The notes beneath the pieces were generated by a model. That model did no database searches, had not been told where the DNA came from, and worked only from the letters and a program-made list of their open reading frames with translations. Made by a program: the position numbers and the translations under genes. Positions 2,177-61,298 of a DNA stretch of 64,000 bases are shown one piece after another; within the stretch, counting starts at the first letter, position 1, and each line of letters opens with the position of its first letter. Origin of the DNA: Protoeuglena noctilucae (taxonomy: Eukaryota); the NCBI GenBank assembly GCA_958009085.1, contig OY253675.1:992001-1056000 (forward strand), read 5' to 3'.

Positions 2177-5146
2177 TGAGGGTGAGGGTGAGAGTGAGGG
2201 TGAGGGACTCCGCTCACGACACCCATGCCCCACTCGCCTCGTATTCGACGTACTGCCCGAAGAACTCCTTCAGGAACTCCGTGGTGACCCTCCCAAGTGT
2301 AGTGGGCACCAACGGAGCACGCCCGCCTCTCCTGGGGTGCACGTAGCCCCTCCTCTCCAGCATTGCTACGGTAGATGCATACGTGGATGGCCGACCAATG
2401 CCCAGCTCTTCCATAGCCTTGACCAGCGAGGCGTCGTTGTACCGGGGGGGCGGTGACGACACGTGCTCCGTAATGCGGACGCTCACCACGGGAAGGGACT
2501 GGGGCAGGGGAGAGGGGAGGGGGTGAGGGGTGGGATGGGAGTTGGCTGTGCAGGGCAGTGTGCGGGGCAGACTGTGCGGGTGAGGCTGAATGGGTGCTGG
2601 CATGTATCATTATGGGTGAGACGACCACACAGGAGATGCACTCATGAATAACAACTTGACCATGTCACAACAGCCGCTGATACTGCCAGCACAGCACACA
2701 GCACACTGCGCGTCTCACGTCTCCCTCCGCCAGTCTCCGGACCTCCGCGCCCCCTCCGCTGCCCCCTCCCTCGTCCCACTCCTCCCCCTCACCCCCCTCG
2801 TTGCCCCCCTCAGTTCCCTGCGCATTGCTGGCCCCCTCCCCCGCCCCATCCGCCCCATCTCCCTCCCCGCCCTGGCTGGCCAAGGGCCGAATCCTGATGA
2901 CAGAAAGAACAAGGCCAACAGTGTTGTATCATACATTCGGAGATTGAATGGTTATACATCTGCTGCACTGCAGTCGCCCTCTTGATGCCCTACATGTACC
3001 ATCCACCCCTCGCTTGCTCTCACCTGTTCACCGCCAGGTACCCGTCAAACATCTCTTCATCTCCTCTCTCACCTGTTCACCGCCAGGTATCCGTCAAACA
3101 TCTCATCCGTCCCCGACACCCGCAGCGTCACGCCCCCCGCCACCATCTCCGCCGTCGCCGTCTCAAACTGGGCAGGCGCCATCTGGCACGCCACCGCCCT
3201 GCGCCACACCAGGTCGTACAGCGCCGCCTGCTCCCGCGTCAGCCCGTGCGTCTCTGGCACCGCCCAGGGCAAGGTACCCGGCCGCGTGGGGCGGATCGCC
3301 TCGTGTGCCTCCTGGGCGTTCTTGGCGCGTGACTTGTACGCAGTGGGAGCGGCCGGGAGGTGCCTAGGCGAGAAGAGCGACGCGATCTGCTCGCGGATGG
3401 CGTCGACGGCGGACGCGGCCAGGTTGGTCCCGTCCGTGCGGGGGTAGGTGATGAGGCCCTCGGTGCCATCCGTGCCCTCGTAGAGCTTCTGAGTGAAGAA
3501 AAGGGATACGAAGCGGCATGGTATCGCATGCTGCAGGCAGAACAGAGACCCGGTCCCACCTCGTCGCTGGGTGGGGCACTACACCCAGTAATAGCTTCCC
3601 ACGTCGCTCCCATCCATGTGCTCGCCTGGGCGGTGGTCGAGGTGAACGACGAGCTGAAGCCCAGGGCCCCCTGCGCGCTCTGCAGGAGCGATGAGGTGAC
3701 GAAGGGGGGCGGCGGGCGGCGTGATCTCTGAGACCGGCGTGTGGATGTCACAGTCGCCAGCGCACCCCGGAGAGCGGAGGCCGCCGCCTCCGCCGCGCCC
3801 GCAGAGTCGAAGGAACTGCCCGCGCCGAGCTTCTGCGAGTAAGGGACGTCATTTGGAAATCCCCCAGCCTCGCCTCGTCCCAGCCAGGCTAGGGCTGTGG
3901 TAGGTCCCAAGGCCAACCGCGGATGATGCGCGAGGACATGCGCATGGAAGCACCGGCCAGACAGTGAGAACGCAGCAGCATCGCACCTGTCCGTCCGCGG
4001 CCACGACCCTCGCGGTCAACACGGCCCCCGAGGGCGTGCGGACGTCCACGGCGACACGCCAGAAGGGCGTGGGCACGAACGCCTCGATCTGCGCCTCCCT
4101 CTCGCAGACGAGGCGCAGCGCGACGCTCTGCACGCGCCCCGCGCTCTTCCCCGCGCACCCCGGCACCTTCTGCCACAGTACGGGCGACACGGAGAAGCCC
4201 ACCAGGTAGTCGAGACCCAGCCGGGCGCGGTACGCGTCGACCAGGTCCGCGCTGATCTCGCGCGGGTTGCGGAGAGCTTCAACAATGGCGTCCCGCGTCA
4301 CTTCCGTGAACGTCACGCGGCGCACGGGGCGGTCGCCCAGCGCCCCCGACGCACGCAGCACGTCGTGAACATGCCACGAGATGGCCTCGCCCTCGCGGTC
4401 TGCGGGGAGCCATGGAACAACCTAAAGTTTGATAAAGGCATACGATGAGAGGCCATGGGGCGCGCGGAAGGGACAAGCGGGGACGTGGGGAGCCCTGAAC
4501 ACATTGCATGACCCCCGGCCTGCGCCCCCTGTCGCCTCACCGGGGTCGGTGGCGAGTATAAGGTCATCGCAACCCTGGAGGGCCCTCGCGATCTCCGTCA
4601 TCCGCGGCACTGCTCGGGCGATGGGCTCCCACTCCATGCGGAAGGCGTCGGTGGGGTCCACGGCGCCGTTCCGGGCCGGAAGGTGCCGCACGTGGCCCTC
4701 TGTAGCAATGACGATGTACTGCAGAGGACGAACCGGCGGCAGGATGCAGCTGGAGGGAGCGGCGGGCCATGGAAGCACAGGGTCGAGCGTCACTGCGCGC
4801 TCCAGCACTCCTCCCGCTGTCGCGCTGTCCCGATGGTCACCTTATCTCCCAGAAACTTGCCAATCTTCCCTGCCTTGGCGTTGGATTCGACGACCAGCAG
4901 CGTGCGGCCCGTTGTGGCCGGCGCGCCCACCGGGGCCCGTGGAGGGAGCTCCGAAGCCTGGGCCAGCGACCGCACCGACGTGTTGCGGCGATAGAATGGC
5001 GAAGCATGTGACCAGAAAGTGGCTCGGCGATCGCTAAAGGCGGACTGGGAGGCCGCGCGAGGACAACTGCACGCGTGGGCTAGCGGCTGAGCACCCGGCC
5101 TCCAGAGCGCGCCGTCCACGGCGGCTCTGGCAGCGATGGAAAGCAT
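1..5146 (-). CDS. topA: Bacterial-type (type IA) DNA topoisomerase I, probably organelle-targeted, multi-exon, with C-terminal Toprim-C repeats and an HMG-box-like domain; 3' end runs off the window
   Basis: Spliced motifs: TOPRIM LLVVESNAKAGKIGKFLG, ATEGHV, LATDPDREGEAISWH, SAGRVQSVALRL, TAQKLYEG, catalytic GLITYPRTDG, AHEAIRP, GIGRPSTYA, EYEFTADMERSLD, and repeats LPRDVGLHSETG..KNGPYGVY / LGTHPD..GKYGPYV. Ala/Arg/Ser-rich N-terminus from ATG 5146 (start inferred). Confidence 0.93.
1575..1825. repeat. Intronic minisatellite built from CCACAC and CTGCTACCCACA modules
   Basis: Directly visible tandem array in the 5' part of a topA intron (sense GTGTGG / GTAGCAGTGTGG); it generates the spurious HPHCYP / VWVWVA ORFs. 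Confidence 0.95.
2050..2205. repeat. Intronic hexamer microsatellite (GAGGGT/GAGAGT)n; sense (CCCTCA/CTCTCA)n upstream of the acceptor
   Basis: Visible array lying between the GC donor at 2237 and the acceptor near 2049 of topA. Confidence 0.95.
3017..3104 (-). repeat. 39-nt duplication of a topA exon 3' end plus its GTGAG donor inside the intron
   Basis: 3017-3055 and 3066-3104 differ at one position (a synonymous GGA/GGG change). Confidence 0.95.
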
Positions 5147-8138: not shown

Positions 8139-11100
8139 CTAATGCGGTAGACGAAGCGCCGCCCCGGGATGCACCGGCCCCGCGCCGTGTCTGCCAGGCG
8201 CAGAGGCGGGGGCTGCCGACCCCCCCATCCCCCCCATCGCCCCCATCGCCTGGCCCTGCAAGACACGGCCCCCAGCCTGGCCGGCAGTCTGGCTCTGGTA
8301 GGCCGCGGCGGACATGGCGGCGGGGCTGACCGCGTAGTAGACGCCCTGCGACCCTGGCGCTTGGTGCTGCGCCTGTCGCAGTAAGGCCAGCTGCTGGGCC
8401 TGGGCCATCTGCGCCTGGGACCACTGCAGCTGAGCCATCTGGGCTTGCGCCACCTGAGCTTGGGCCATCTGGGCCTGGGCCACCTGGGCCTGAGTCATGG
8501 GGCGGGACCCCTGAGTCAGGTGTGCCTGCGCCTGCGCCAGGGCCTGCATCTGCTGTAACTGCTGCACCTGGTGGGCCTGGGCCATGTGCATCTGCATCGC
8601 CAGCGCAGGGCTGACGCCCACAGAAGCACCGCCCATCGCACCGCCCATCGTCGCGACAGGCACCGCCACACCAGCGCCCGCGTGCCAACCCATCCCCCCT
8701 CCCACGCTTCCCATCGCAAAGCCCGCCACCGGCGCGCCCCCGTACGCCACAGCCACGGCCCCCGAGTTGGGCGCCATATGCATGGGCTGCATGCCGCCAG
8801 ACACCACCGCGTACCCCCCAGGCCCCACAGCCCCGCCCTGCTCCCCCTTTGCCCCACGCTCTGAGATTCGTTTGGGCGCGCCAGCTCCCGACGCCACCGC
8901 ACCCGTCGCACCTGCCTCAGACCCCCTCCCAGCCACGCCTGTGTCGCCTCCCTCAGGCCCACCCTCCTCGTCAGCCCCACCCCCGTCCGCCCAGGCATGC
9001 ACCGACGCAAGGACACCTCCGCTTACATTCGCCTTTGCCCCGTCCGACAGGGGTGGCGTGGGCGGCGCGGGTGGCGCGGGTGGTGGTGGGCCGTGGGGTG
9101 GTGGCGGTGGGGAGGGCGGAGGAGCGGGCGCAGCGAAGGGGGTGCCGTGGAACTGGGCCGCGAGAGCAGAGGACACGCGCCCGGGAGGCCCTCCAATCAT
9201 GGCGGGGGGCACTCCCAGCGAGTGGCTGCGCTGCAGGCCCTGGCTGAGGCGGGGGCCGGGGGCCGGTGCGGGGCCTCTCGCCCCGTCTGCTGTGCCGGGC
9301 GGGGGCGGCATAGGCGGGGGCGGCGGGAGGCTTCGCAGTGCGCTGCCGACGGGCGCAGGTGCGGCCGCGGCGTTGGCGAGGGCCATCTGCGCGACGGCCG
9401 GGGCGAGGGAGTTGGGGGTGACGGTGCGTGAGGCGAGGACGGCGCTGAGGGGGCGGGTGAAGCCGTCGTGGTTGCCTCGGAAGGAGGAAGAAGACGCCAG
9501 GGACGATCCCCCTCCCCGGGCCCCGAAGGAGTTGGCGCCAGAGTAGGTGGTGCCAGAGTATGTGGTGCCAGAGTAGGTGCCAGTGCCAGAGTAGGTGCCG
9601 GGGAATCCCAGGTGGTGCGGGGACCGAGCGAAGGAGCTCGAGGCGGAGGGTAGCGTCGACAGAGTGGACCCGGGAGTGCTGGGGCGGCCCCCCGAGGGCG
9701 TGGTGGCCCAACTGGCCTGGCTGGGCAGGCTGGGGATGCTGGGGATGCTGGTTTGAGAAGGGATGCTGGGGTGTCGGGGGAGCGAGCCGACGGTGGAGAG
9801 GGTGCGGGAGGTGGGGGAGGGGCACTTGGCGGGGGAAGTGGCCTCGAGGAGGTCGCGCACGGCCGCCTGGGGGGGTGGCAGAGGGGGTGGATGGTGGGTG
9901 GGTGACATGGGGGGAGTGAGAGGGGGGCATGGGGAGCGTGAACAGATTGACAACGAACAGCTTGGGTGCCGTGCGACAATCAACCGCCCTTGCACGCCCA
10001 ACCCTCAACCCACCTCTGCTCACCACGACTGCCCTCATCCACCCCCACCCCAGCACTGCTCACCACGAGTGGCCTTGCCGCCTCGTCGATGTCTTCCCCG
10101 GGGTTGGCCGCCTTGCGGTGCAGCAGCGCCGACAGATGCGCCCGCACCGCCCCCACGACCCCCACCACCCCCGTCGTGGCGTTGAACAACACCAAGTCCC
10201 CCAGCACCGCCAGGCAAACCTCGGACCGGCCTGGGACGGGGCGCACGGTCCCCCCGAACAGCACCAGGGCCCAGTCAGGGACCACCGTCAGCGTGACCAG
10301 GAAAATGCCGCCCCCGCCCTTGCGGACCTTCTGGGGGAATGGGAAGAGGTGAGGGAGAGGTCAGGGAGGGTGTGAGGGTGGGGAGAGAGAGTTGAGGAGA
10401 TGGGGAGAGGTGAGGGAGGGTGTGAGGGTGGGGAGAGAGAGTTGAGGAGATGGGGAGAGGTGACGAAGGGAGAGGAGAATAGAGAGGGTGGGGAGAGAAG
10501 GGCCGAGCTGGGAGCGGTGGTGGGTGTTGTCTCTTTCTAAGAGAGAACAGACAGTTAGCCACCAGGTGCACAGTTACTATGCTGCTTTGAGTACTGGTAA
10601 CGTTGCGTTGCTCTCTCCCCATCCAAACACCCACAGACAGTCAGCCACCCCATCATGGCCGCGTGCCATTGCCAATCGCAGCCCCCAACACTCGCCTGGG
10701 AGTAGGCGGCGAAGTTGGCCTGGATGTCGTCTCTGTGGGCGTTGAGGACCGAGTTGGGGTGCAGCTCCACGCGGCCGTCGTCCTGCGATGGCATGGGAAC
10801 CGAGCGGAGATGGGCATGATGGGCCGGGGTGGTGAGGGTGCCGGGAATGACATGGGCGGGAGTGACTGTTTGTGTTATGCTGTGTAGGCTATCCCGATCA
10901 TCGGGATATTGGCAACAGCTCGTGTGGCACGTGTGTTGGTCACAGCCACCATAGGCACTACCATAGCTGCCATCATAGGTCCGTCCCTACACCTCCACCC
11001 ATCGTCATCGTCGCACGCCTCGCCTTGGTGCGGAATGCGGCCCTGTTCCTCTTCTGCTCGACGATGGCCACGTTGGGGTACATCCCCGCGCATATGACCG

Positions 11101-14100: not shown

Positions 14101-16420
14101 GGAGGGGAGATGAGATGAGGTGAGAGAGGTGTGAGATGTGGGTGTGGGTGAGGGCAGGAGGATGCCCGTGGTGCTGGGGGAGGGGAGAGGGGGAGTGAGG
14201 TGAGGGAGGAGAGGTGATGAGAGCAGCAAAACGCCCGTCATGTTGAGTGATGTTGGGTCATTGAATGGTATGTGAACGGTGGCATGTGACCCACTGTGGA
14301 TTCTCATCCCGCATGCCTCACCACATGAGCAGCCTCGTCTCCGGCCCCCTGCTCGCCTCCAACCGCACTTGGTACCCCACCAGGCCCCCGATCGGCACGC
14401 CCGCCTCCTGGGCCACTCTGGGTGCGTAGAAAAGCGAGATATAGTTTGCGAAAACTGTTACATACAACTACTACATGTGACTATGGCTTACAGCTCGTTG
14501 AGTGATTGGTGGGTCAAGGGAGGCGCGGCTGCGATGATGCCGAGCAGTGCAACATGGGCAGTGCAACATGACAAAGCATAGCAACAAGATGGCATACCAA
14601 CGTGCGTATCTCACCTCTGCGCGACGCTGATGGCGCTGATCCTCCTGGGCTGCGTGCATATGATGCTGGTGCGCCCACCCATGCCGCTCGCGATGGCGTC
14701 CTCCAAAAGGAACTGGGGCAGCTGCGTCGTCTTGCCACACCCTGCGTGGGTGATCATGGCGACAGAGCTTGAAGAAAGGGTATGTGGAGAAGTAAGCAAC
14801 GTTGGAGGTGGGCAAGGCGAGGAGCAAAGAACAGGTGAGACGGCCAGCCACCTCTCGCCTGCCCCTCAGACCGATTCTCACCGAACTCTCACCCGTCTCC
14901 CCCGACACCACCACCAATGACAAAACCACCCCACCCCACTCCCACTCCACCCCACCCCTCACCCGTCTCCCCCAACACCACCACCACCACCACCACCACC
15001 ACCACTGATCAACCACAATAACAGCTCAACTCATCCCATCCCACCCCTCACCCGTCTCCCCCGACACCACCACCACTTGGTGCTCCCGCACTTTGGCCAG
15101 CAGCTCCTCCCGCATCTCCCAGCACGGCAGACGCTGCCGGGTCTCCAACAGCCGCTGCACCGACTCCAGCGACGCTCTCCGGGCCAAGTCAGCCTGCAGC
15201 GCTGCGCTGCGCTCCGCCACCACCTCCGCCGGGCCCCAGCCGTCGCCCGCCCGGGGGCCCGCGTGGCGCGGACGGTGGTCCGACGCCGTGGCGCTGCGGA
15301 GAAGATGCGGGGATTTGGTCACTGACACCGTTCGTGCCAGGGCAACGTGCCAGCGTGGCACGAGGTGGACGCACCCAACCCAAGTCTGCCGCACTATTTA
15401 ATACAGCAAATTGCACGTGTCTGCATGCGTCCGCTCTCCCTCACCCGCTGACGTCCGGCGGCTGTCCCAGGCACCGCAGTGCGTCGGCCAGGCGGGCGTG
15501 GGCGTCGGGGGAGAGCGTCAGCGTCCGCTCCACCCGGGCCTTGTGGTCCAAGTCGGCACTGAGAGTGATATAAGAGAAGAGACAGGTAAACGTCAAAAGA
15601 GATACACACGGCAGCCAGCACCACCCTCGAGTCAGTCTTGCACACCAGCAGTCTCATGTCCCTCTGTTGGTATGTGGACCACGACCCCCAAGCAAGACAG
15701 GGCGCTCTCACCGGTACTCCGGCAGCTCGTCCCGGCTCAGGCAGTGCACGCGGTCCTTCTTCTTGCCGTAGGCCTTGTAGTAGAGCCCCGCAGCCTCGGC
15801 CGCCCGCTGCAGCATCCGGCCGCAGTCGAGGCCCTCAGGGTCTCGGAACACCGCCTCCTGGGTGGCGCCAGAAACCAGCTGCGCCAGCGTCCACTGCAGC
15901 GCGTTCTCGTGCCGGGGGGCCTGCGGGGATCGGATGGGGGAGAAATGAGGTGACACTCGGCGGCCATCACGATTCATTGTCATGGCACCGATCGCACAGC
16001 ATGCGACGGGTCACAGATCACATGCGTCACGCCGCGGAGAGCGCGAGTGGATCGCCGGGCGTTGCAAGGAGTATCGAGAAAGCGAATCACAGCCCGTGCT
16101 CTAGTCCGTGGTCACACCTCTGGGACCTGGGCCCGCCGCCACGCGGGATCCCACCAACGCTCCTCGACCACATGCTTGGCCTTCTTCCCTGCGAAGGACG
16201 CGGGGGCGGCCGGCACGTCGAATTGGGGGAGGAGTCGCCTGGTGTCGGAGGCGGTAGCGAAAAGTGCGCGGCCCGGCCTCACGGGAGCAAGGCCCGCCGG
16301 AACGTGAATGATCGCGCCAGCATTTCGCGGGACTCACCTCGCTTCGCGCCTTTGGACTTCGACATGTCCCGCCCACTCCTTTGTAATGGCCTGCGCGGCG
16401 ACGCGAGGAGGCGTTCTCAT
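8139..16420 (-). CDS. DExH1: DEAH/RHA RNA helicase, plant DExH1 / DHX36-like, multi-exon, with a long low-complexity C-terminal tail
   Basis: [99 protein letters not shown]2 [24 protein letters not shown] 16420 is inferred from splice phase. Confidence 0.92.
10363..10462. repeat. About 50-nt tandem duplication in a helicase intron
   Basis: Two copies of agggagggtgtgagggtggggagagagagttgaggagatggggagaggtg. Confidence 0.85.
14076..14188 (-). repeat. Duplicated acceptor plus exon start (ccccAG|CACCACGGGCATCCTCCT) inside a helicase intron
   Basis: 14076-14100 is repeated at 14156-14180. Confidence 0.9.
14888..15076 (-). repeat. Two intronic copies of the helicase exon end VVVSGETG plus GTGAG donor
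   Basis: ctcacccgtctccccc(g/a)acaccaccacca at 14888, 14958 and 15047 (the true junction). Confidence 0.9.
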
Positions 16421-20500: not shown

Positions 20501-20724
20501 CCGGATGGCTTACGAGGGAAGTCGACCCAGTGCACACTCGTTATCTTCTCGGTGTTCGCAGGGAGTACTCGGCCGGCCGGATGCTGACGGGCGAGGTGAA
20601 GCAAGTCCTGATCGACCTGCTGTCGGAGATGACGCAGCGGCACCAGGAGGCGCGCAAGGCCGTGACGGACGAGGTGCTCGCCAAGTTCATGACGCCGCGC
20701 AAGATGGAGAACCTCTGGGGCTGA
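17509..20724 (+). CDS. WARS: Cytosolic tryptophanyl-tRNA synthetase with N-terminal WHEP/coiled-coil extension (13 exons)
   Basis: [87 protein letters not shown]. The upstream exons splice in frame. Confidence 0.95.
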
Positions 20725-24100: not shown

Positions 24101-25348
24101 TGGCAGGTGAGAGCGTTACAGATACAGACTCAAGTACGACTGTGGCAGGTGAGAGCATGACACATACAGATTCACGCCCTTGCTTATTACGAATCACCAT
24201 TTAAGCAGCACCTAGTCTCTCTGCGATGCACGTTGGTCTTTGACTGGGAACCCACCCTGCTTGGCTCCCGCATCTGCGGTGTCTCACATGCGGCGTCTCA
24301 CATGCGGTGTCTCCCATGCTTACCATGCAGGGTGCAGCGGTGGACCAGGGAGCGCATGCTGAAGATCAGCGGGCAGGTGTCGCCATCGGTGCTTGACTGC
24401 GACCTCATCATCGTCCCAGGTGAGCCAGCCAACCGTGGGGCGGTGGGGCGTGAGATGCTTTGTGACGGGGCTTGTGCTTCACATGCTATCTGGTCACGTA
24501 GCCTCCCTGTGGTTCTATGCATGTTGATGGATTGGATCGTGAGCCCTGTGATGCAGCCAGCGCCTCCTCGCCCCTGCAGTCAACCTGCCCAATCACTGGG
24601 TGTGCGCGTGCATCGACCTGCGCCACCAGCGATTGGGGTTCTTCGACTCGATGGGGTCGCAGCGACAGGACGTGCTGCAGCACCTGGCACGGTGGGTGGG
24701 CGACGAGTACAAGGCGAGTTGCACTTGCCATGAGGGTTGCGGGGTGCAGGGCGGGCGGTAGGTGGGCGACACTGCGAGCGTCGTGCGAGCTGGTTCAGAA
24801 CAGGGTGGTCACGAGGGCCGATGATGGGGCGAAGGAAGGGCGTGTGATGTCCATGGCGTGGGTGACTGTGGCGTGCTCGTGCCCGTGCATCGCTGCAGTC
24901 GTGGCCTCACATGCGACCCGTCACCAACCCCGCAGGACAAGAAGGGCCAGGTATTGGACGCATCTGACTGGGAGATGTGCATGCCAGGGGTGCGCGCGCC
25001 CCAGCAGAACAACGGCAGCGACTGTGGGGTCTTCACCCTCATGTTCGCCGACTGCCTGGCGCGGGGGATCTCCCCTTTGGAGGACGCCACGGGGCGGAAC
25101 GCCTTCCCAGAATGCCTGGTGAGACACCAGGGCTGGGACAGGGTCTGTTAACTGTTAGTTAGCGCCGAGCTGTGCAGGCATGGCCTCCTGCACTTGTGCT
25201 GAGCGTGGCGCATGCCTCCAGGGGCCTGGCCCGGGGTTCGCATGCTGTTGTCTTATCTCCTACATTCCTCTTGCTGCAGTGTCAGGACAAGATGCCTCAT
25301 TTCCGCAACAAAATCGCGCGGGACCTCATGCGTGAACAAGCGAGCTGA
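21119..25348 (+). CDS. Ulp1/SENP-family SUMO protease (peptidase C48) with a long disordered N-terminus
   Basis: LRRGMWLTDEVIRGYL, VQRWT, LIIVPVNLPNHWVCACID..FFDSMG, PQQNNGSDCGVF (H-D-C triad); ends KMPHFRNKIARDL. Start and 5' exons are inferred from splice phases. Confidence 0.88.
24089..24172 (+). repeat. 42-nt tandem duplication of a Ulp1 exon end plus donor
   Basis: caagtacgact(a/g)tggcaggtgagagc at 24089 and 24131. Confidence 0.9.
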
Positions 25349-30900: not shown

Positions 30901-33900
30901 GAGCTGCGGCGCGTGACTGTCCCTGTGTGTTTCCCCCACGCAGGCCGCTGCCGTGTCAAGCGCCCCCGCGTCAGTCCCGACTCCGGCGGCCGACGCGGCC
31001 TCGAGTTTCTGGGACTCCCTCTCCGCGGCCCCGAAAGCGGAGGGGGGCGCCGCGGGGATCGAACCCGCGACCGCAGGGGACGCAGGCCCACAGGGGTCGG
31101 CCGCCACGCCAGACGTGAAGAGCGGTGGGGACGGCGGCCATGCAGGGAGCAAGAGCAGCGGCAAGAAGCGGCGGTGGGGGGAGGCAGTGGGGCCTGCGAA
31201 TGGCGCTGGGCACAAAGAAGGGGCCAAAGAGGATGGGGCTGTGGCGGTGACGGGAGATGGGGGGGTGGAGGTGGCAGGGGTGGCGGTGGGGGATGAGGCG
31301 GTGGGTGAAGAGGAAGATGAGGGTGATGATGAGGAGTTGGTGGATGACGAGTTGAATGACCTGGGGGAGGAGGGCGACGCGGTGCTGGCGGCGCTGGCGG
31401 AGGAAGTTAAAGAGAACGAGGTGAGATGGGGGGATGCCTGGTGGGGTGATGGGCGAGGTGATGGGTGAGGGGTCATGATGTTTGTGAGTGAGCGTCTTTA
31501 ATAATCACGTATCACATTATCGTGTCCTCATCGCGGCTGTCTTCGCCCCTGATCTCCCAGAAGGCGTTCAAGGCCAAGATGTCCGCGATGCTCGACTCCC
31601 AGAAGGACATGTTCGATGCCATGGTGGAGGAGGAGAGGGGCATCCGGTGAGTCATGGGTGCATGAATGTGGGGGGTGGGAAGAGGGGTACATGGGGTGTA
31701 TAGGGTGCATGAGGAGGGTCTGAGGTGGTGACAGCTTGTGGCGGTGCCATGTCGCACAGTGCTGCGAGTAGTACAAACACGCCTGTCCCCGTGCATACTA
31801 TGCTTATACATATGCAATTGTCCCACCTCCCCTCAGCCTGCACGAGTCCGGTTGGAAGGAGCGCTACTACATGGAGAAGCTGGGGGCGACCAAGGAGACG
31901 CTGCCCGCCGTCATCCGGCGCGTGGTGGAGGCGTTCGTGAGGGGACTGGCGTGGGTCATGCGGTGAGCAGTGGCAGTGTGTGTGTGTCACTTGCTCACTC
32001 ATTTATACCATCTCCTCTCCTCCTTCAGTTACTACTATGACAGCGTGGCCTCCTGGTATCTTTCGCTTACACCAGCACCACCACTTATTCGCATATCCCA
32101 TCCCCTCTCTTCCTTACTCAGTTACTACTACGACAGCGCGGCCTCCTGGTCCTGGTACTACCCCATCACTTACACCCATCACTTGTCACATTCATTTACC
32201 CCATCGCCCCATCTCTGCAGTTATTACTACGACAGCGTGGCCTCCTGGTCCTGGTATTACCCCGAGCACTACGCCCCCTTCGCCAGCGACCTGGTCGACC
32301 TGTCATCCATCGACATTCGATTCGAACTGGGCAGGCCCTTCAAGCCGTTCAACCAGCTCATGGGGGTGCTGCCCGCCGCCTCCAAGCACTGCCTGCCCGA
32401 GGCGTACCGGTGAGGGGGGGGTTGGGGGAGTAGGGATGAGAGGCATAGAGTGATCGAGTATTGTGAGGGGCGTATGGCGGTGATGGTGGTGGTGGTGGTG
32501 GTGAGGGAGTTAATGTGAGAGTTGTGAGGTAGTGATGGGAGGGGTGCATGACGGGGTGCTAGTCATTGCTTAATGCTATAGAGAATGCCATAGAGAATGC
32601 TGTAGACAGAATGCTAGAGAGAATGCTCCAAAGATAAATCTTCATCATCATCATCTGTTAACAACCAACCACCCCCCCTTCCCTCTCCCCCCAGTTGGCT
32701 CTTCGACTCCCCCCAGTCCCCCATATTAGACTTTTACCCCAAGGACTTCAAGCTGGACATGAACGGCAAGAGGTTCGCCTGGCAGGCCGTGGCGCTGCTG
32801 CCTTTCATCGATGAAAAGCGACTGCTGGATGCCGTGGCGTTGGTGGAGGGGGAGCTGAGCGAGGAGGAGAGGTACCGCAACTCGCAGAGGCTGGAGATGC
32901 TCTTCGTGCATGCGGAGGTGAGGGGATGGGCGTGATGATGGGGTGATAGTGTTTGTCCAGCTGAGGCCCCTTCTTTATTCCTATAAACCCTTTCTGTCAC
33001 TCCTCCTCTCACTCCACCCTACCTCACCCCCCCTCTCCCTCTCACTCACCCCCACTCACCTACTCATCCCACTCCCCCCCCCCCCCCCCCCCCCCCCAGC
33101 ACCCCCTGGCCCCCGCCACTCTGGAGCTCGCCCACCTCCCCCCCTCCTCCACCACCCCACCCGAAGCCCCCATCGACCCAGCCGAATCTCAAGGCATGAA
33201 CGGCACCATATCTGCGCCTATGGGAGACCCGATGCCTGCAGTGCTGGAGGCGCCGTTTGGGCTGGGGGAGCCGGTACGGAACAACAACGCGGTGTGTGCG
33301 TTGTACCGACTGCCCGCGCACCACCCCCACAAGTGCACCATCTTAGAGGTGAGGGTTTTTGTAGGGGGGCGGGGGGGTGGAGGTGGGGATGTGGTGCTAT
33401 TGCATGCAAACCCTTTTGTTGCGTCATTCCTCAGCATATCTCTTTCCATGTCACTCACTGGCCCTACCAACCCCCACACCACCCCACTCTCCCCAGGGCA
33501 CGGTACTTCCCCCCCTGGAGTGCACAGAGATGGATCGCCCAGCTGTCGAGCAGATGTGGCACTTGTCGCAGGCAGGTGGGGGGCCCAGGCCACACTACCA
33601 CGGCGGCGGTGGGGGTGGCAGGGGCTACGGTGGCCACCCTGGTGGGGCAAACCCCGGGGGACACCCCAGCGCCAGAAACGGGCCGGGTCAGGCGGGGTGG
33701 GACAGGGCGCACGTGCCAGTGGCGCACCTGGCGCCAGAATCGCAGCAATTCCTGCAGCACGAATTGGGGAGGGGGGGGCAGCCGGGGCCCAGGGGACCGG
33801 GGGGGTACGGGCCTGGGTATGGGGGCTACGGTGGTGGTGGCGGCGGTGGGAGTGTGACGTTTGGGCAGCAGCAGGGGATGAATGTGGCGGCGGGGAGGGG

Positions 33901-34917: not shown

Positions 34918-37443
34918 CTACGCCCCCTCGCCCCCCTCCCCATCGCTCCCACTCCCACTCCCGCTCCCCTCACCCCCACTCCCCCCGTCCCACATCCCCC
35001 GCTCCTTCCTGGCTCGCCTAGGCGACACCCACGGAGCGAGAGTGATGTCATCTGGCCGTCGGTCATTGCGCTCATAGTAGGCACTCCAATGGGCCATCAG
35101 GGGAGCAGGCATCTCCCAGGGACGGTGAGTGGTAGGAGTAGTAGTGGTGGTGGTGGTTGCACCTGTAATGGGTGCACTAACGCCTTCACCCATGCTTTCA
35201 CTCATGCCCTCCGCCACACCCTCTCTTGCACAACCACCACCCCCCATTGATCCTTCCAATCCCTCTCCACTCCCCATTCCACTCGACTGTTCTGAATGCC
35301 CCACCGCCACGCACACTGGCAGCCATGGCGCGTGAGCCCCACTCGCCCTCAGCCTGGCTTCCAGTTCCCCCACTGCAACGCTGGGGTCGTCGGGTGAGGA
35401 ACACTCCCACCGCGGCATCAGCAGCAGAGACCCTGCATGTGTGGTGGGGTGGGGAGAGATGAAGGGGATGGCATAAGAGAGTGAAACATAGGGACATGGA
35501 GACAGCACAGCTCCAAGCGTACCCATTGTGTACTGTACTGGTACTATACTATCAGTATAGTACAAGTCTAATGTATCTCGTCACATCTCACCGGGTCTCT
35601 TCTCCCTCTCCCTGGGTGTGCTGAGGGGCGCCTGCACGAAACGCGTGCGCCCCTCCCACCGCACGCCACCACCACCACCAACGCCCTGCTCTTGCATCGA
35701 CCCAGCCACGCCAGCACCCTCCACCTCTTCTTCTGCTTTCGCCCACCCCTGTGCCATGGGCGCTGGCCTCTGTCCCTCCCGTGACACATCACGCTCATAA
35801 CGCAACCCACTCTCGCCACCACCACCACCGCCACTCCGCTCTCCGTTCCTGCCCACCACTCCACCTCCACCCCCACCCCGACCCTCTTTATCTCGCTGCA
35901 ATCTGTCACCCCCATCGTCACCCCACCGCAGCGCAGTGTCCCAGGCGAAGTGCGTGTGGCCATAGATGTGAATGTGGGGGCGGAGGCGATTGACGCGAGA
36001 GCCCAGGGGATCGGAACCGGACATCTTGGCAAAATCTGTGGGGCGCAGATAGGGTGGGTAACATTGGTGGAGAGAGAAGGTGATGTAAGTAACATGTATG
36101 TTGGTTAGCAAGGGCGAATGTAGCAGGGGCGGCAGGGTGACAGCAAAAGCATGGACAGCTGCCCCGCTCCCCTGCAAAGCCACGTGCTCACCGGGATAAG
36201 TCAGGTATCGCTTCTCCGGCAGCAGCAGCTGGTAGGGCAGGTAGTGGCTCATGGTGACGAGCGCGCATCCGTGCAAACGCGCGTGGCACGCCGCCTCCTC
36301 CGCCGTCGCAAACTCCCGCACCGCGCCCCCTCCTGCCTCTTGCGCCCGTCGGGAGTTCGATCCCCTCTGACGAAACGTCGTCCTCTCTCCCGATGTCGAT
36401 TGTGCTGCATCGCTCATCACCAACGCAGATGGGTCGTCGTTCAGTGCGTCGAACCACTCTGCCAGCGCCAGTGACCCTTTCTCGTCTCCACCAGCCACAC
36501 TTGCAGGCCACTGGCAGGCGCGGTAGTCATTGCAGGCGATGCCCACTGGGGAAAACCCTGCGATGTCCCTCTCCTTGTCCCAGGACCTGGGTGGGGCAGC
36601 GAGTGGGGTGTGTGGTGAGGTGAGATGAGGTGAGGTGAGGTGAGGTGAGGTGAGATGAGGTGCTGGCCATGGAGACGCCAGGTGGCGTGTCACGCATCTG
36701 TGAGACAGATGCCAATGCCACCATCGCATGCCTCACTCACTTGTGGTGCCACGGGAACAGGTGCAACTGCTACCATCACGACTCACTTGTGGTGCCATGA
36801 GAACAGAGGCGCCACGACCACCGGGCCCAGGCGGAAGGGCGACGTCCGCACCCCCTCCTCCTCGCACACCCGCATCACCAGCCGCAGCTTCGCCAGAGAG
36901 TCCGAGCAGCCGCCGTTGCGGCGATGGGCATCGGGGCCCGAACCCCTGCGATGGGAAGCCGAGGGCTGGTGCCGTTCACTCCCCTTTGTTCGCATGCACC
37001 CGTGGGTCCGCATAACCACCACATAAATCCAATCCAGAGAATCTGGCTATTGCATCTTTCGATTCCTATTCCTCGCCTGACCCATAAGTCGTGGTTCCCC
37101 GGCGTGAAGCACACCTCCCGGAAGCCACGCCGCAGCACCGCCAGCGTCTCCCGCACCATGTCGATGTCGTCCGAGATGTCGCCGGGGAGCAGCAGGACGT
37201 GGTCCTGCGTGGAAAGCACGAACAGAACGACAAGTTGAGGATGCGCAGGGAAGAGGGACGGCGAAGGTAAGCAGCGGGCTTTCTTCACAGGGCCGAGCGT
37301 GAGCGCACCCGGTACAGTCCTCCCTCGGCGAGGTCCCGAATCCACTGCATGTTCTCGGGGTGGTCCGTGTGCACGTCCGACTGCGGATGGGAAGTGGTGA
37401 GGAGTCGGCAGAGCCTAAAATGGGGAACGTGCCGTAAACGCAT
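34918..37443 (-). CDS. Calcineurin-like metallophosphoesterase, multi-exon
   Basis: SDVHTD, LLLPGDISDD, FTPGNHDLW, PLFSWHH, TMSHYLP, HIHIYGHTH. The start codon is uncertain. TGTAA (chlorophyte poly(A) signal) lies on the minus strand at 34804-34808. Confidence 0.85.
36615..36661. repeat. Pentamer array, sense (CTCAC)n, near an intron 3' end
   Basis: gtgaggtgagatgaggtgaggtgagg... visible on the plus strand. Confidence 0.9.
36735..36806 (-). repeat. Duplicated exon end plus donor (LFSWHH|GTGAGT and LFPWHH GTGAGT)
   Basis: actcacttgtggtgcca..gaacag at 36735 and 36781. Confidence 0.88.
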
Positions 37444-38125: not shown

Positions 38126-41100
38126 TCAATCGACGGCAACGACCCTGCCACCGGTCCGCGCCCTCTTGGCCGGCGGCCCATTACCAGGCAAGACCCCTCC
38201 CTGCCCCCGCGGCCCCGCGTTGGCACACGCCCTCTGCAGCGGCCCCGGCGACGACCCGGACCCCGGCCCCGGCCCGGAGCTCTGCCCCACAGGTGGCGGT
38301 GCACGCGCGCCTTCCTCTCTCATCAACCCTGACATCGCTGCCCCTGACCCAGCCCCTGCCCCTGACCCTCCCATTGCCCCCCGAGCCTCAGCCCACCCGA
38401 CGAGCTCCACCAGGTCCGCATCATCGATCCCCGAAGCCGCCCCACCTGCTCCCGCACCCGCCGCCTCCCCCGGCCCTAGTGTTGCCGCCTGCGAGGCCGC
38501 CTGCCTCGCGAAGTAGCTCCCGATGTCCGGCCCAGCCTGCGCCGCGGGCGGTGCGGTCTGCGAGGCGAGCTTCCCCGCTTTGCCGTCCAGCACCGTGCCG
38601 ATGTTACAAAGCTTGGACACCACCGTCCGCCTCATGTGCTCGTCGCACGTGCCGGCCGTGAGGAGGTAGATGACGCGGACCTGGCTGGTCTGGGAGATGC
38701 TGCGAAGGGGCGTGGGGAGGAGAGAGAGATGTGTGGGGTGATATGGTCGCGTAAGCTCTCTACAATGTAAACCGCACCGAGGGTAGACAAGCACCGCACC
38801 GCCCACCCTCTCTCCGCCACACCCTCTCTCAGTCACTACCCTCTCCACCCACCCATCATTCATCCCCCAATCCATTCCATCCCTCACCGGTGCGCCCGGT
38901 CCTCGCACTGCTGCAGCAGCCCCGGCGTCCAGCACATCTCGGCAAAAACGACCGTGGACGCGGCCGTGAGGGTGATGCCCGCGTTGGCGGCCGTGATGCC
39001 CAGCACCGCCACCCGCACCGAGTCGTTCTCCTGGAATCGCTGCACCTGGGCCTGGCGGTCCGCGGCGGGGGTGCTGCCGTCGATGCGGACGTGCGGCACG
39101 CCCTTCTGGCGGCACACGGCCTGACAGGCGTCCAGCTGCAGAGGGTGCGGGGGTGTGTAGCGGGGTCGTGAGTGGGACTCACAATGCTGCGGTGAAACGC
39201 AGTGTAGCAAGAAAGCTCGGCTATGCAAAGCAGAGGAGAGGAGCAGCTGTGTTACTTCGCTCCTCCCACTCACCATGGGCAGGTGATGCGCGAACACGAG
39301 GAACTTGGTCCCCTCGTCGATCATCTTCTCCAAGTGCCTCTGCACGGGCTTGCGCTTGACCTCCACTGCGATGGACAGGGAGAGGGGTTCGTTACTTAGT
39401 ACTGAAATATTTTAAAGGGTGTCTGTGATTAAGAGCTGCTCCGCATGACACCCCCCACGACTTGCTCTTCCCACCGCAAGCACCGCAGTCCCACTCGCGC
39501 CATCCGCCACCAGGCTCATTGCATCGCATGGCACCCCTGCCCCACTCGCAAGCACCGCAGTCCCACTCGCTCCCCCACTCGCAGGCGCCACTCGCCCGTC
39601 TCGCTCCACAGCTTGTTCATGAGCGTCTTGGCCTCGACCCGGAGCCCCTCCAGCTCCGCCGACGCCTCTGCCCCACGCCTGCCCTCCAGGTCGTGGATCA
39701 TCTCTGCCACCCGGCGACGGCGGGAGATGACGGGCTCCAGGAGCTGTAGTGAGAGATGACGAGGTTTGTCCGTTGTATTAGTGGATGAGTCAATGGATGA
39801 TGGGCACACACTGGGGCACCCACACACACACCCCACGCCCACCCGCCCACTCGCATGCGGCCAGATCCCCATTCACTCGCACTGGCATACACCCATATGC
39901 CCCGCCGCCCATGCATTGTCTCACCTGCAGGTCCGCTGGCGGCACCTCCAGCCACACATCCACGCGCACTTTGGAGGGCAGCTGCGACAGCACGTCCTCC
40001 TTGCGGCGGCGTATCATGATGGTGTTGGTCAGCATCGCGTTGAGCTCCTGCTTGTTGGAGGCGCCTGCGAGGATGCGGGAGGTATAGTAAGGGTGAGACT
40101 GAGACTTCGCCACGCTGCTTGCTACTTGCAGCTTGCCCCATTCTCGCCCCACCCCGCTCCGTACCACTCCCCTCACCACCCCTGCCACACAACACACCCC
40201 ACACAAGTGTTCACAAGTCCTCTCCTATACACATGCCCCCCATATTCACGCACCTTGGAACTCCCCGAATCTCCCCCCTGAGCAGTACCTCTCCCCGTAC
40301 GCCTGGAGACCCACGCCGGGGACCAGGGAAGACACGGCCGTGAACATCTGCGGTGACAGTGAGGTGGGCAGAGATCATTAGCAATGACCGGTTGTGGGCT
40401 TGCAAGTGAGAATGGGGCGAAGCTCAAGGCAGCAGCGCCCCATATGCACACCAAGTGACCCATGTGCGCACGGTGTACTCGTGTCACCTCGATGGGCTTG
40501 TTGAGTGCTGGCGTGCCGGATATCATGAGGACGCGCTTCATCTTGCACGCCTTGAGGATGGCCAGGGCCGCGCGGGTCGTCTTGGAGGTGTGGGCCTTGA
40601 TGCTGCGGGCAGTGGAGGTGCAAGTGTGCACGAGCACTCACTCACTGGTATAACAGCCAACATGCGTCATCACCACTGACACTCGTCCCTTGCTCCGTCA
40701 CTACCATCTCCGCCCTCATCAGTAGCACCAGCTCGCACACCCCAACTGAAACCTCACCAGTAACGCTAGCTCACACATAGTAGTACTACCTCCTCCACCC
40801 TCACCAGTGGCACTCGTCCATGATGGCCACGTTGAACCCCATGGACCCCAGACACTGCCTGAGCTTGTCCAGGAGAGTGTACGTCACGATCACCACCTTG
40901 GGGCGGGACGACGACAGGCGGTCCGAGTCCTTGCCCGCCGTCACCTGAGGGTAGTTTATTGATATGAGAGATGAGAAGAGAGGAATTGATGATACAGCGG
41001 GTGCCAGTCAGCCGCACACGACAGCTATCGGTCATCAACGCCTGCCCCACCCACTCCCTCACTCACTCTCTCACACCCCACCCCACTGCACCACACCCCA

Positions 41101-55929: not shown

Positions 55930-58900
55930 ATGTCCAGCGCTGCAGGGTTGGGCGTCGTGCGCGGCCCCTCCGCCGGGGCCCGGACGGCCCGGCCGGAGGC
56001 GCGATCCGGGCGCGCTGCCGCGGTCCCGCGATCGGGATCCATCCCTAGTCTCCCCCAGACCAAGCCTGCGCCCGCCTCCCTCCCATCCCAGGCCGCGGCG
56101 CGGCGGCAGGGCACGCTGCGGTGAGGGCGCTGCATCTACTCCCCGTGGGCGCGATGCGCCCGATTTCCGGCGGCCCGGCACGCATAACGCACGAGTTCGA
56201 GGGGCCGATGAGCTGGGCGCCGCCTCATTGGGCGCCGGATCGAGGGAAGACGCGCGCCCGGCGTCCCCATGCAGGTGCAACGCTGTGCTGAGCGATGTGC
56301 GCCCCAACCGCGAGTACGCGGACACGTTCCCGCGCGGCAAGAACTGGGACGTGCACAAGTTCGGCGGGACCTGCATGGCCACGGCGGAGCGCATCGAGGA
56401 CATCTGCCAGATGATTGCGAAGGACCCGGCGGACAGCAAGCTGGGTGAGGGGCGCGCGGAGGCCTCGCGCGAGCCGCGGATCGCAGCGGCAGACGCTTGG
56501 TGTTGCTTACATCGGATCCGCATTGGACGGACCGGCTCCCGCGGGACCGTCGCGCGCCCCGGACGCCGCTTTGTTGCGCCTTTCCTCGTCCCCCGCGATC
56601 GCGCCACGCGGCGCCCGGCCGGCGCCGGAGCATCGGCATTTGCGATTGTCTCTTTTGTGTCCATGACATGGCTGCCTGTAAAGCCCGATTGGCGCCCGCG
56701 GTGGGTGGCGGTGACCTCACCGCGCAAACGACGCCGCCCTTCCGCCCTCCCCTGCAGTCGTGGTGTCGGCGATGGGCTCGCTCCCCACCTCGCCCATCAA
56801 GGTCACGGACCTCTTAATCAACATGCTTGCCAAGGCTTCGCGGGGCGACAGCTCCTTCGCCGAGGTGAGACTGAGGGACGGGATGGGCAGTACAAGGTGC
56901 ATGGCCCCTCGCCTGGTCTTCCAAAGCAGTCTGCCATTGCACCGCTCGTTGATTTTGTTCCAATAGATACGCCAAGCCACAGCAGTGGATGGTATAGAAG
57001 CAAATGGGATGGCAGCTGGGGACGCATGGGTGACGCGTGGGTGAGGAGATGTGGACTGCGTGGCTGCGATGCAGGACTTGGACAAGCTGAAGGCCAAGCA
57101 CGAGGAGGCGGCGCGCAAACTGCTGGGCGGTGACTCCAAGGAGTACCAGGCCGTCATGGAGGCCATCTCCAAGGCAAGGGATGGTGGGGCGATGGTGGAC
57201 GTGTCGGTTCAGACTGGGATCCAATATGGGTGGATTGGGTGCCGTGCCACGGTATCTGCGAGACATGCGGTGTGGTAGTGAACAATGCCATGTTCGCTGG
57301 GACAGGGGGTGCCGTGGTCAGTGGACGAGGTCAGGCTCGCACCGGTGGCCCTTCGCTCAACATCCCAACAACCCACCTCACCCCTCGCGATCCCCAGGAC
57401 ATCTCCGGCATCGTGGCGATGCTCCGCGCGGTGGAGGTGGCGGGGATGAAGGTGGAGGCCTTCGAGGACTTCGTGGTGGGCCACGGGGAGCTGTGGAGCG
57501 CGCGCATGATGGCGAGCCGCATGGGCCAGATGGGCGTGGACGTGGAGTTCATGGACGCGCGGGAGGTGATCGTGGTCAAGCCGACCGAGACGGGTGCGGA
57601 CGTGGACGTGCTGTTCGCGGAGAGCAACGCCAAGCTGGATGCCTGGGGCAAGGCGCACGGCGTGCCCAAGGTGGTCGTGTGCACGGGGTTCGTGGCGCGC
57701 AACCAGGACGGCCGCATCACCACGCTCAAGCGCAACGGCAGCGACTACTCGGCCACCATCATGGGGGCGCTCCTGCAGGCCAGGAACATCACCATCTGGA
57801 CCGACGTCAACGGGGTGTACTCGGCCGACCCACGCAAGGTGAGAGGGGGTGGTTGATTGGTGAAGAGTGGTAGAGGGGGAGGGGTATGAGATACGAGGGT
57901 GTTTGTGCAGGGCGTGGTGGATTGGAAGGGAGAAGGTGTGGAAGTGGAAAGCACAGCGCATGACAGGCACCAGTGATCACGTCACATCAACCGCTGTGTA
58001 CCTCTCTCTTACCCCCTTGCAGGTGAAGGACGCCGAGTGCCTGGAGGTGATGTCCTACAACGAGGCATGGGAGCTGGCGTACTTCGGGGCCAACGTGCTG
58101 CACCCGCGCACGACCCTGCCCGCCATGCGCTACCGCATCCCGGTCGTGCTGCGCAACGTGTTCAACCGCCAGCACAAGGGCACCACCATCACCACCAAGG
58201 AGGAGGCCGCGGGCAGGGGGCCCAAGGTGCGGTGGGCTGGGGGGCTGAAGGAAAGGGCTGAGGGGGTTTGCTGGGGTGGTGGTGCAACCACGACTGTCTT
58301 GGGCCCTATTACTACTCACCAGCCGCAACATCTGATGTCAAACTCTTAGTGATATGGACAGCTTCTCCCCTGTGTCCCTGTGTATCTCAGGTGAAGGGTT
58401 TCGCGACGGTTGAGGGCGTGAGCTTAATCGAAGTGCAGGGGACGGGCATGGTGGGGGTGCCGGGCACGGCCTCGGCCATCTTCAGCGCGGTCCGGGACGC
58501 CAACGTCAACGTCATCATGATCTCACAGGCGTCGTCCGAACACTCGGTGAGTGTTGATATATGTATATGTCAGGAGTCTGTGTGTGTATACCAACGTCAA
58601 CGTCGTCATGACCTCACAGGCGTCGTCCGAGCACCAACCCCACTCATCCTTCCACCCGACCCCGCTTATCCCACTTCACTCACCCCAGACACCCACTCAT
58701 ACCACCCCACCCTACCCCACCCATTCACCCCATCCCTCACCCCACTCACCCACCCCCAGATCTGCTTCGCCGTCAAGATGGCCGACGCCGACCGCGCCGT
58801 GGAGTGCGTCAAGGCCCGCTTCTCCGACGCCATGCGCGCCCAGCGAATCTCCGAGGTCACCAAGATCGACAACTGCACCGTCATGGCTGCCGTGGGGCAG

Positions 58901-61298
58901 GAGATGGCATCGAGGAAGGGGATCTCCGCCAAGGCGAGTGTGGGTAATTGGATTTGAATATGCAGGGAGAGAGGGGTGGGTGGGTGGACGAGTGCGTAAG
59001 TTGTGTAAAGCACGGATGACGCAGCTGTGAGGATGGAAGCCGCGGTTGCGCTCACCCCCATTGCCACCCTCACCCCCACCCCCACTGCTACCCCCACCCT
59101 CACCCTCATTGCCACCATCACCCCCACCCTCACTGCTACCCCCACTCATACCCCCACCCCCAGCTCTTCACCGCGCTGGCCAAGGCCAACGTGAACGTCC
59201 GCGCCACGGCCCAGGGAGCCTCCGAGTACAACATCACGGTGGTCATCGACTCGGCGGACTCCGCCCGGGCTCTCAAGTCGGTGCATGCCGAGTTCTACGC
59301 CAAGGGCATCCCCCTGGGGGTGGCGCTCGTGGGGCCCGGGCTGGTGGGCAACACCCTGCTCAAGCAGCTCAGGGACCAGATGGGGCGGTGAGGGGTTGGC
59401 ACTAAGGGTTGGCACTAAGCGTTCCTTTCCCTCACCACGCCGTGCATGAACTGCCGTCTTACCTCCCCTGTCCTCCCACCTCTCACCCCCCCACCCCCCC
59501 CCCCAGCCTGAGGGGCGACCTGGGCGTGGACCTGCGCGTGCTGGCCATCGCCACTTCCAAGCAGATGCTCCTGAGCGAGACGCCCATCGACCTGGATGGC
59601 TGGGAGGAGCGGTTCAAGGCCGAGGGGACGGCCACGGACCTCAGCCGGCTGGGGCAGCACATGAAGGTGAGGGGTGGTGGGTAGGTGTGACTGGGGCACA
59701 GCACAGCGCATGAAGGTGACTGATGAGGCCACTCTCACTCACACCCTCACTTACCCTCGCCTTCAAATCGCAACCCCCAGGAGTGCTACACGAATGCCGT
59801 GGTCATCGACTGCACGGCGTCCGAGTCCGCCCCCTCCATGTACCAGGAGTGGGTGCGGCAGGGGCTGCACATCATCACGCCCAACAAGAAGCTCGGGTCG
59901 GGGGACCTGCAGAGGTACCGGGAGATGAAGGCCGCCCTCAAGGACAGGTGAGAGTGATAGTGATGGTGATGGCAGTGGAACTGAGATGAAACCGAGGGAT
60001 GGTCAATTCTTTGTTTCCGCAAACACCATCACGGACCATTACCCTCACCCTCACCCCCACCCTCGCCCCCACTGCCACCCTCACCCTCACCCCCCCCTTC
60101 CCCCCAGGGGCCTGACCTGGGGCTACGAGACGACCGTGGGCGCGGGCCTCCCCGTCATCTTCACCCTGAAGCACCTGGTGGACACGGGCGACCGCATCAA
60201 CCGCATCGAGGGCGTCTTCTCCGGCACCATGTCGTACCTGTTCAACAACATCAAGCCGGGCGTCAAGTTCTCGGAGGTGGTGGCGCAGGCCAAGGAGCGG
60301 GGGTACACGGAGCCGGACCCACGGGACGACCTGGAGGGGATGGACGTGGCCAGGAAGGTGAGGAATGTCGGTGGTGTTTGAAAGTAAGCAAATGGGTCAA
60401 GCACTTGACCCACTTGCGCCACCTGTTCTCCAACGCTCACTCTCACCGCCCCCACATCCACTTCCCCACTTTTCACCTCACCTCTCACCACCCCACCCCC
60501 TCCTCCCCCCTGCAGGTGGTGATCCTGGCCCGTGAGGCAGGTGCCCCCGCGTCGCTGCAGGAGGTGGCCATCGAGTCCCTGGTGCCCGCACCCCTGCGCG
60601 ACAAGAGCAAGGCGAGGGGTGTCGTATGGGGATGGGGGTATGGAGATAGGGGCATGCACGTTTGGGGGCCGGTCTCTCATTCTCAATAACTTGGCAGGGC
60701 ATCCTCTCCCCGCCCTTTCCTCCACTCCAGTCATCTTCTGCACCGTCACCCACCCCACCCCTCCCCATCCCACCCCCCCAGGTGTCGGTCCCTGAGCTGA
60801 TGCAGCGCCTGCCCGAGTTCGACGACGACCTGGCCAAGCGCGTGGAGGAGGCCGACAAGGTGAGATGAGTGGGTGCATGGGTGGACGTCATGGGTGACCC
60901 GCGGCTATGGTAACGATGAGCGTAGTAAGCATCGGTCAACCCCGTCTGATGTGCCACACGTGTTGACATCCCTGTCCCCCACACACAAACCGCACGTTCC
61001 AGTCTCATCACACCCCCCCTCCCACCCCTCCCCCACCCCCCAGAACGGCCAGGTGCTGCGTTTCGTGGGGGTGGCAGACCTGGCGGAGGCCAAGTGGCGC
61101 GTGGAGCTCAAGGCCTACCCCAAGGACCACCCCTTCGCGGCGCTGACGGGCGCCGACAACATCATCATGTTCTCGACCGACCGGTACAACACCCTGCCCC
61201 TCATCGTGAGGGGCCCCGGGGCGGGGGCCGAGGTCACGGCCGCGGGGGTGTTCAGCGACATCCTCCGCCTGGCCGCGCACCTGGGGGCCACCATGTGA
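55930..61298 (+). CDS. AK-HSDH: Bifunctional aspartate kinase-homoserine dehydrogenase, plastid-targeted, multi-exon
   Basis: WDVHKFGGTCM, VVGHGELWSA, TTLKRNGSDYSA, WTDVNGVYSADPRKV, YFGANVLHP, ACT domains (MISQASSEHS, AQGASEYNIT), GPGLVG, TPNKK, YETTVGAGLP, GYTEPDPRDDL, GPGAGAEVTAAGVFSD. Confidence 0.96.
58500..58634 (+). repeat. 44-nt copy of AK-HSDH exon sequence (NVNVIMISQASSEH) inside the following intron
   Basis: 58500-58543 versus 58591-58634, 3 mismatches. Confidence 0.92.

Follow-up and report, generated by a model that had tools for sequence, protein, structure and literature searches.

The window, by which we mean the whole 64-kb stretch analysed (G000:C8:992001-1056000), lies within a 26.3 Mb, 27-contig assembly and carries, among others, the topA, DExH, WARS, Ulp1, XRN, phosphoesterase, SMARCAL1 and AK-HSDH genes. 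These names match Pfam in eight of the nine exons scanned, two of the eight falling below the curated cut-off. A protein search with the AK-HSDH exon found its best named relatives in chlorophyte green algae (61-64%), the best match overall being 77%, and DNA of the window is present in marine metagenomes. Two topA introns (1570-1810 and 2061-2206) are filled by long 6-nt-based tandem arrays. A gene whose exons are very long and which has two Cys-rich repeats (43763-46695) adjoins a nearly intronless ankyrin-like gene (47458-49462); judged by eye, we take the Cys-rich repeats to resemble HNH-type endonuclease motifs of large algal viruses.

At several exon/intron junctions of the window the end of the exon, usually with its splice site, recurs within the adjacent intron (Table 1). 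We call such a copy an echo. Comparison of the window with itself recovered every pair named in the original prediction, with 0-5 mismatches. That prediction had placed the echoes in five genes; the echoes stand, and the genes holding them number six, plus SMARCAL1. Two regions of SMARCAL1 had been thought to hold partial echoes. The one at 40675-40820 does, in the form of two decayed donor echoes, while in the other (39470-39600) the repeat 39475/39547 is wholly intronic. The intron there (39366-39595) carries a donor-like motif several times over, including an identical 24-nt pair, without exon sequence. A low-complexity filter removed both DExH donor echoes (14888 and 14947) from the pipeline counts given below.

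Table 1. Junction echoes and related features of the window (positions numbered within the window)
Feature	Position	Strand	Remarks
topA donor echo (32 exon nt + donor)	3017..3055, copy of 3066-3104	-	Offset 49; 39 nt, 1 mismatch; intron 2894-3072
DExH extra weak donor echo, absent from the original prediction	10001..10035, copy of 10041-10075	-	Offset 40; score 17
DExH acceptor echo (CAG + 18 exon nt)	14156..14180, copy of 14076-14100	-	25/25; offset 80; out of frame; in X5 contig
DExH far donor echo	14888..14916, identical to 15047-15075	-	29/29; offset 159
DExH near donor echo	14947..14987, copy of 15036-15076	-	2 mismatches; offset 89
Ulp1 donor echo	24131..24174, copy of 24089-24132	+	5 mismatches in 44; tandem unit of 42 nt, nearly complete (18 exon + 24 intron nt); in X5 contig
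XRN far acceptor echo	32026..32057, vs 32218 onward	+	2 mismatches; offset 192; use would keep the frame without a stop; found in contigs of X7 and X5
XRN near acceptor echo	32119..32164, vs 32218 onward	+	3 mismatches (2 synonymous, 1 non-synonymous); offset 99; use would keep the frame without a stop; found in contigs of X7 and X5
XRN predicted true acceptor and exon start	32218..32263	+	Gene model, intron 31963-32220; Pfam XRN_M
Phosphoesterase donor echo	36735..36760, copy of 36781-36806	-	Offset 46
SMARCAL1 intronic 24-nt repeat pair, donor-like motif, without exon sequence	39475..39570	-	Window self-comparison
SMARCAL1 pair of decayed donor echoes (junction at 40804)	40670..40728	-	Offsets 131 and 85; scores 13-14
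AK-HSDH exon-only echo, without donor	58591..58634, copy of 58500-58543	+	44 nt, 3 mismatches; offset 91; copy ends 3 nt before donor
AK-HSDH donor echo with 7-nt insertion	59691..59719; core 59704-59719 copies 59655-59670	+	Window self-comparison

Allele-like differences between two copies are also expected where an assembly has merged two haplotypes. We regard such an artefact as extremely improbable here, and for the echoes covered by two DNA runs it is already contradicted. The runs were compared with the assembly over 19 kb, a stretch outside which the topA, phosphoesterase, SMARCAL1 and AK-HSDH echoes lie. In run X7, which is not flagged as an assembly source, a single contig crosses 31756-32350 and holds both XRN echoes with zero differences. 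Run X5, which may be an assembly source, covers 13950-14916 with 0 differences and 16360-32471 with 1 difference, and its contigs include the XRN, Ulp1 and two DExH echoes. These echoes are thus, as had been argued, no product of assembly.

Echoes are remnants of head-to-tail duplications of ~40-170 nt that lie across a junction and take in the exon end, the splice site and part of the intron, which supports the view that local duplications survive where they straddle a junction. Offsets range from 39 to 172 nt (5th-95th percentile) with a median of 83, and a few echoes lack the splice site. Among 36 donor-intact echoes the ungapped match reaches a median of ~7 nt into the intron; identity between echo and exon side stands at 0.94 for the final bases of the exon and 0.91 within the donor hexamer, and drops to 0.52, 0.46, 0.37 and 0.34 intronward (unrelated sequence, 0.37-0.28). 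Homology in the intronic portion of the unit is present but slight: 12 of 39 score above other introns at p<0.05, and the others are weak. Spacers look like the intronic portion of the unit they belong to, as an inserted introner or transposon would not. Divergence of exon and of spacer is uncorrelated across echoes (rho -0.17, p 0.31). Just 3 of 63 units match over at least 80% of their length, which leaves no group of young, perfect copies, and the 'very active' duplication process first proposed is not supported. At one locus (L105 8084; G000:C3:520001-530000) a 22-23 nt unit that begins at the donor recurs in an almost perfect tandem array and so makes a minisatellite at the start of the intron, similar to that of F7 intron 7.

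For a genome survey, 100 stretches of 10 kb were taken and the six holding N were dropped. Frames and junctions are those of our own gene finder, whose starting set was 12 RNA-supported WARS introns plus a handful read by hand and which then trained itself; its single independent check was the one RNA-supported intron outside the seed (31421-31560), which was recovered. The finder yielded 1,838 introns, 1,500 in a first sample and 338 in a later one, whose stretches were picked beside echo-rich loci and which was used for the synonymous test and excluded from frequencies. GC donors are very common, with 352 among the 1,838 predicted introns and 4 among the 12 RNA-supported introns of WARS (17626-20561).

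Exon ends aligned with their own introns gave 36 donor and 10 acceptor matches of score at least 12 among 1,446 introns, where length-matched other introns gave 0.95 and 1.25, so the copying described in the window holds when exon ends are compared with flanking introns across the genome sample. Outside the window, 44 of 1,371 unselected introns contain an echo (3.2%), with chance-level matching amounting to ~1% of that. The window itself has echoes in 9 of 129 introns, plus the filtered DExH donor intron; this is about twice the unselected average (p 0.04). Echoes are clustered, being absent from 54 of 75 stretches and present in 7 of ~20 introns in two stretches. They concentrate in long, G/C-skewed introns deep within gene bodies: 6 of 597 introns within 700 nt of the start codon have one, and 49 of 547 beyond 1,500 nt. 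Echo introns have a median length of 238 nt, or 146 nt without the unit, against a genome median of 119 nt, in line with the suggested route to intron growth.

Introns in general change along the gene (e.g. window 57839-61043). With distance from the start codon their median length goes from 102 to 163 nt, CpG observed/expected from 1.02 to 0.71, 5′ G skew from 0.07 to 0.41 and 3′ C skew from -0.29 to -0.50. The commonest hexamers of the G-rich and C-rich intron ends are complementary and might pair. Our guess is that gene-body methylation lies behind this gradient.

The two kinds of junction are not represented equally. Donor and acceptor echoes stand at 67:19, where random placement gives ~1.2:1 (p<=1e-4). 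The decoy splice sites that had been foreseen are present: 47 of 72 donor echoes keep an intact GT or GC in register, 17 of 22 acceptor echoes keep an intact acceptor site, and spare donors score a median of 7.0 versus 7.4 for the real donor. Extension of the exon to the spare donor shows no enrichment for being in frame (18/72), and 81% of donor-echo read-throughs meet a stop, just 5 of 47 being both in frame and open. Of 19 introns with surviving acceptor echoes, 12 hold an in-frame copy (p 0.007, a bias noticed after the fact); in the later sample alone 6 of 10 echoes are in frame (p 0.08); a stop is present in 5 of 14 in-frame acceptor cases. This in-frame bias suggests that acceptor copies were used when they arose. 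Two neighbouring introns (L122 6427 and L122 7453; G000:C12:190001-200000) have two acceptor echoes each, with private changes that are mostly synonymous.

Intron gain or sliding, also put forward originally, finds no counterpart in these units. As judged from their sequence, none of 69 contains an in-register pair of donor and acceptor by which it could be spliced as a new intron or alternative exon, and no exonised junction copy was found. Most copies are out of frame or contain stops, unlike mutually exclusive or other alternative duplicated exons. Two metatranscriptome runs were compared with window 13950-33050, and among the joints listed none belongs to an echo intron; those listed belong to 12 introns of WARS and to a single XRN intron free of echoes, along with two rows common to DNA. 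One RNA contig over the DExH donor junction has other letters and probably comes from another organism.

Repeats lying wholly within introns provide a comparison. Near-complete tandem units make up 28 of 61 such repeats, just 3 of these being at least 35 nt, and among long intronic repeats off junctions 3 of 35 are near-complete. Donor echoes exceed long wholly intronic repeats by 67:24, as against ~1:1 predicted for duplication on the same chromosome, an excess at junctions of the kind on which the original prediction depended. These figures bear on the reading that echoes are simply old same-chromosome tandem duplications, made by slippage, staggered nicks or polymerase-theta-type repair, in which indels scrambled the low-complexity G- or C-rich intron part while the exon part stayed recognisable. 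The near-complete intronic repeats indicate that duplication in cis occurs, and the head-to-tail units with residual intron homology suit this reading, although it requires either that the process has stopped or that introns take 2-4 indels per substitution.

A further test concerns the differences between echo and exon. A neutral same-chromosome copy changes at all sites and its exon at synonymous sites only, which caps the expected synonymous rate at two times the non-synonymous rate. Echoes scoring below 16 or having fewer than 12 exon nt were left out, as were the three junction-adjacent exon bases. For each intron and side only the top echo was kept, and the rate fit was stratified by mutation class and CpG. 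The 63 echoes have 76 synonymous and 55 non-synonymous differences from their exons, and the fit puts the synonymous rate at 4.75 times the non-synonymous rate of the echo (against 2: LR 17.6, p 2.7e-5), with ratios up to 3 rejected at p<0.05. Shifted reading frames give ratios of 0.5-0.6. The first sample (39 echoes) gave 4.76 (p 0.001), and the result was replicated with 24 later echoes (3.9, p 0.034). The excess is seen for donors, for acceptors and in 43 out-of-frame units. Expressed as a share of differences, synonymous changes reach 0.55-0.58 (bootstrap 95% range, 0.48-0.68), where 0.40 is expected. The seven scorable echoes of the window itself show no excess (5 synonymous, 7 non-synonymous, p 0.39-0.49). 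Neither the synonymous bias nor the donor/acceptor asymmetry had been mentioned in the original prediction.

CpG decay was considered as a cause of the bias and rejected: CpG sites are fast, but they contribute 13 synonymous and 14 non-synonymous changes, and the excess is mostly elsewhere. It is strong among C<->G changes (22/244 vs 7/742). The non-synonymous changes are no more conservative than random (BLOSUM p 0.16), which fits decay after duplication. Synonymous excess and random-looking non-synonymous changes together indicate that echoes are neutral now and that part of their divergence was built under protein constraint.

Protein selection on both copies could have acted if echoes are or once were translated, through alternative sites in regular use or because they are remnants of whole-exon duplications (mutually exclusive exons) trimmed by deletion. 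We hold this to be very unlikely. It would explain the synonymous excess, spare sites that score like real ones and acceptor echoes that are mostly in frame, both XRN echoes being open; but the excess is equally clear in the out-of-frame units, the donor read-throughs mostly end at stops, no unit is spliceable in register, and the non-synonymous changes lack conservatism, some echoes even having stops or indels.

Simulated cis duplications, young or old, gave synonymous shares of 0.37-0.41 in all eight settings, below the observed share. Ongoing cis duplication produced many intact units as well, and such units are not seen. With 2-4 indels per substitution in intron-derived DNA the identity cliff was reproduced, and the synonymous share was not. 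In a trans simulation, with allele divergence set at 0.45 in introns and 0.15 at synonymous sites (both values chosen to fit), the share was 0.55 and the identity profile 0.91/0.95/0.55/0.44/0.36/0.31, so that both features were matched; it requires introns ~3x more diverged than synonymous sites. The trans model also fits the 67:24 ratio of donor echoes to intronic repeats (p 0.10), which cis does not (p 1e-6 and 3e-4), since a diverged allele yields intron-only copies that are difficult to recognise. Apparent junction targeting would therefore be largely a matter of what survives and stays visible. Same-chromosome duplication can thus draw on high indel rates for the cliff and on the window alone for a lack of synonymous excess. 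Elsewhere it has to treat that excess as an unmodelled mutation-context effect, yet the excess persists after base-class and CpG stratification and in the C<->G class. We consider this origin unlikely, though with appreciable weight.

The explanation we favour, at about an even chance of being right, is that echoes are non-coding remnants of short head-to-tail junction duplications whose two copies come from different, diverged haplotypes. What the alignments display is a doubled unit of ~40-170 nt that joins an exon end and its splice site to a piece of intron. The second copy would have been made in trans, either when an intron break was repaired from the homologue and the repair was ended by end-joining, or when an unequal crossover joined the two homologues. 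One-ended copying from a homologue finished by end-joining, and unequal crossover, would both follow from established repair pathways. The homologue would have had similar exons and far diverged introns, and the event would unite alleles already differing at synonymous sites and across the intron. Selection on splicing may then have filtered the products in the pattern observed: a spare donor downstream of the real donor would be tolerated if the first donor met is used, and a spare acceptor upstream of the real acceptor would be harmful and survive mainly in frame. The copies decay neutrally thereafter, leaving the intron longer.

Another way to the same synonymous excess and cliff is a cis duplication after which the real exon end and the first intron bases changed faster than the echo, by allelic gene conversion replacing the ends of exons or by hypermutation near used junctions. 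Intron L054 8183, where both echoes share synonymous states against the exon, is of the kind expected. Seven introns with two echoes, however, argue weakly against the exon alone changing faster: echo-private changes are rich in synonymous ones (10 synonymous, 8 non-synonymous; p 0.04), and just 3 of 21 changes are private to the exon. Nor would a faster junction account for long repeats off junctions, which are mostly incomplete too, and its gene-conversion form still needs diverged alleles and so overlaps with copying between haplotypes. We judge it quite unlikely.

A search for the diverged allele supposed by copying between haplotypes, made by scanning metagenomes with the XRN exon, gave 22 loci, all distant relatives (best, 78% amino-acid identity) and not the allele; one of them (L081) has no intron at the XRN site. 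The closest relatives for an empty-site comparison reach 77-78% amino-acid identity at best. Between the independent run X7 and the assembly 1 of 5,519 listed nt differs, so the population sampled by X7 shows no such diversity now. Other samples' runs bearing the same species label contained almost none of the sequence words looked for, an outcome that we count neither for nor against. No paralogue emerged as template at the one locus searched, AK-HSDH, whose exon/echo stretch has a single match in the assembly.

Somewhat short of an even chance, in our estimate, is the bolder proposition that echoes are fossil alleles, that is, pieces of a strongly diverged second haplotype trapped where recombination between diverged lineages broke off at the drop in homology from exon to intron. 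If so, a single haploid-looking algal genome records past sex or hybridisation, the divergence of the partners and a recombination map, and outcrossing itself drives intron growth in gene interiors. If the allele-like signature is upheld, one genome would record directly how diverged haplotypes recombined in a microbe that otherwise reveals little of its sexual past, and would offer a mechanism by which recombination bears on the length of introns. How splice sites are chosen in a green alga is put to the test by the asymmetry of donor and acceptor echoes and by the in-frame bias of the acceptors, and the synonymous-share test is applicable to any annotated genome.

Duplications spanning a junction are known as single cases; here they affect 3% of introns, and up to 7 of ~20 in some 10-kb stretches, which makes a natural experiment. 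In human F7 intron 7, a 37-bp VNTR lies across the border of exon 7 and the intron, and the most upstream donor alone is used (Borensztajn et al. 2006, PMC1557585). As in the alga, junction-spanning units arranged head to tail, each uniting the end of the exon with its splice site and the intron next to it, place intact spare donors downstream of the real one, and use of the first donor as reported for F7 would explain why donor echoes are tolerated. F7 is one gene with many identical units, whereas the algal echoes are dozens of independent cases of 2-4 copies, diverged, with synonymous bias and with acceptor cases, and copies near-identical along the whole unit are few (3/63).

The short, local, imperfect break-repair (SDSA) duplications of vertebrates likewise put exons and splice sites in adjacent introns, and templates on the homologous chromosome have been suggested for them (Pace et al. 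2009, PMC2671141). In that study, copies within 50 bp were excluded as tandem, mean spacing was ~1.2 kb, and duplications were identified via empty orthologous sites. The algal units are head-to-tail and come without an empty site to compare; their copies differ like alleles, a form of divergence of which the pertinent passages of Pace et al. make no use, while the allele itself was not found in the X7/X5 runs or the metagenome scan.

Among intron gains by tandem duplication, a potato duplication crosses an intron/exon boundary on the acceptor side (2011, PMC3265369), as acceptor echoes do. The potato case makes a new intron, and new introns also arise in the gains described elsewhere (PMC3443670, PMC4974935), whereas the algal units form none in register and their copy is absorbed into an existing intron. 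We did not find a genome-wide class of junction echoes with synonymous bias in the literature searched, a search whose coverage excluded most subscription papers and supplements. Duplications across a junction belong to a class of events already known; the novelty lies in how echo and exon differ, as two alleles do and not as a gene does from its neutral copy.
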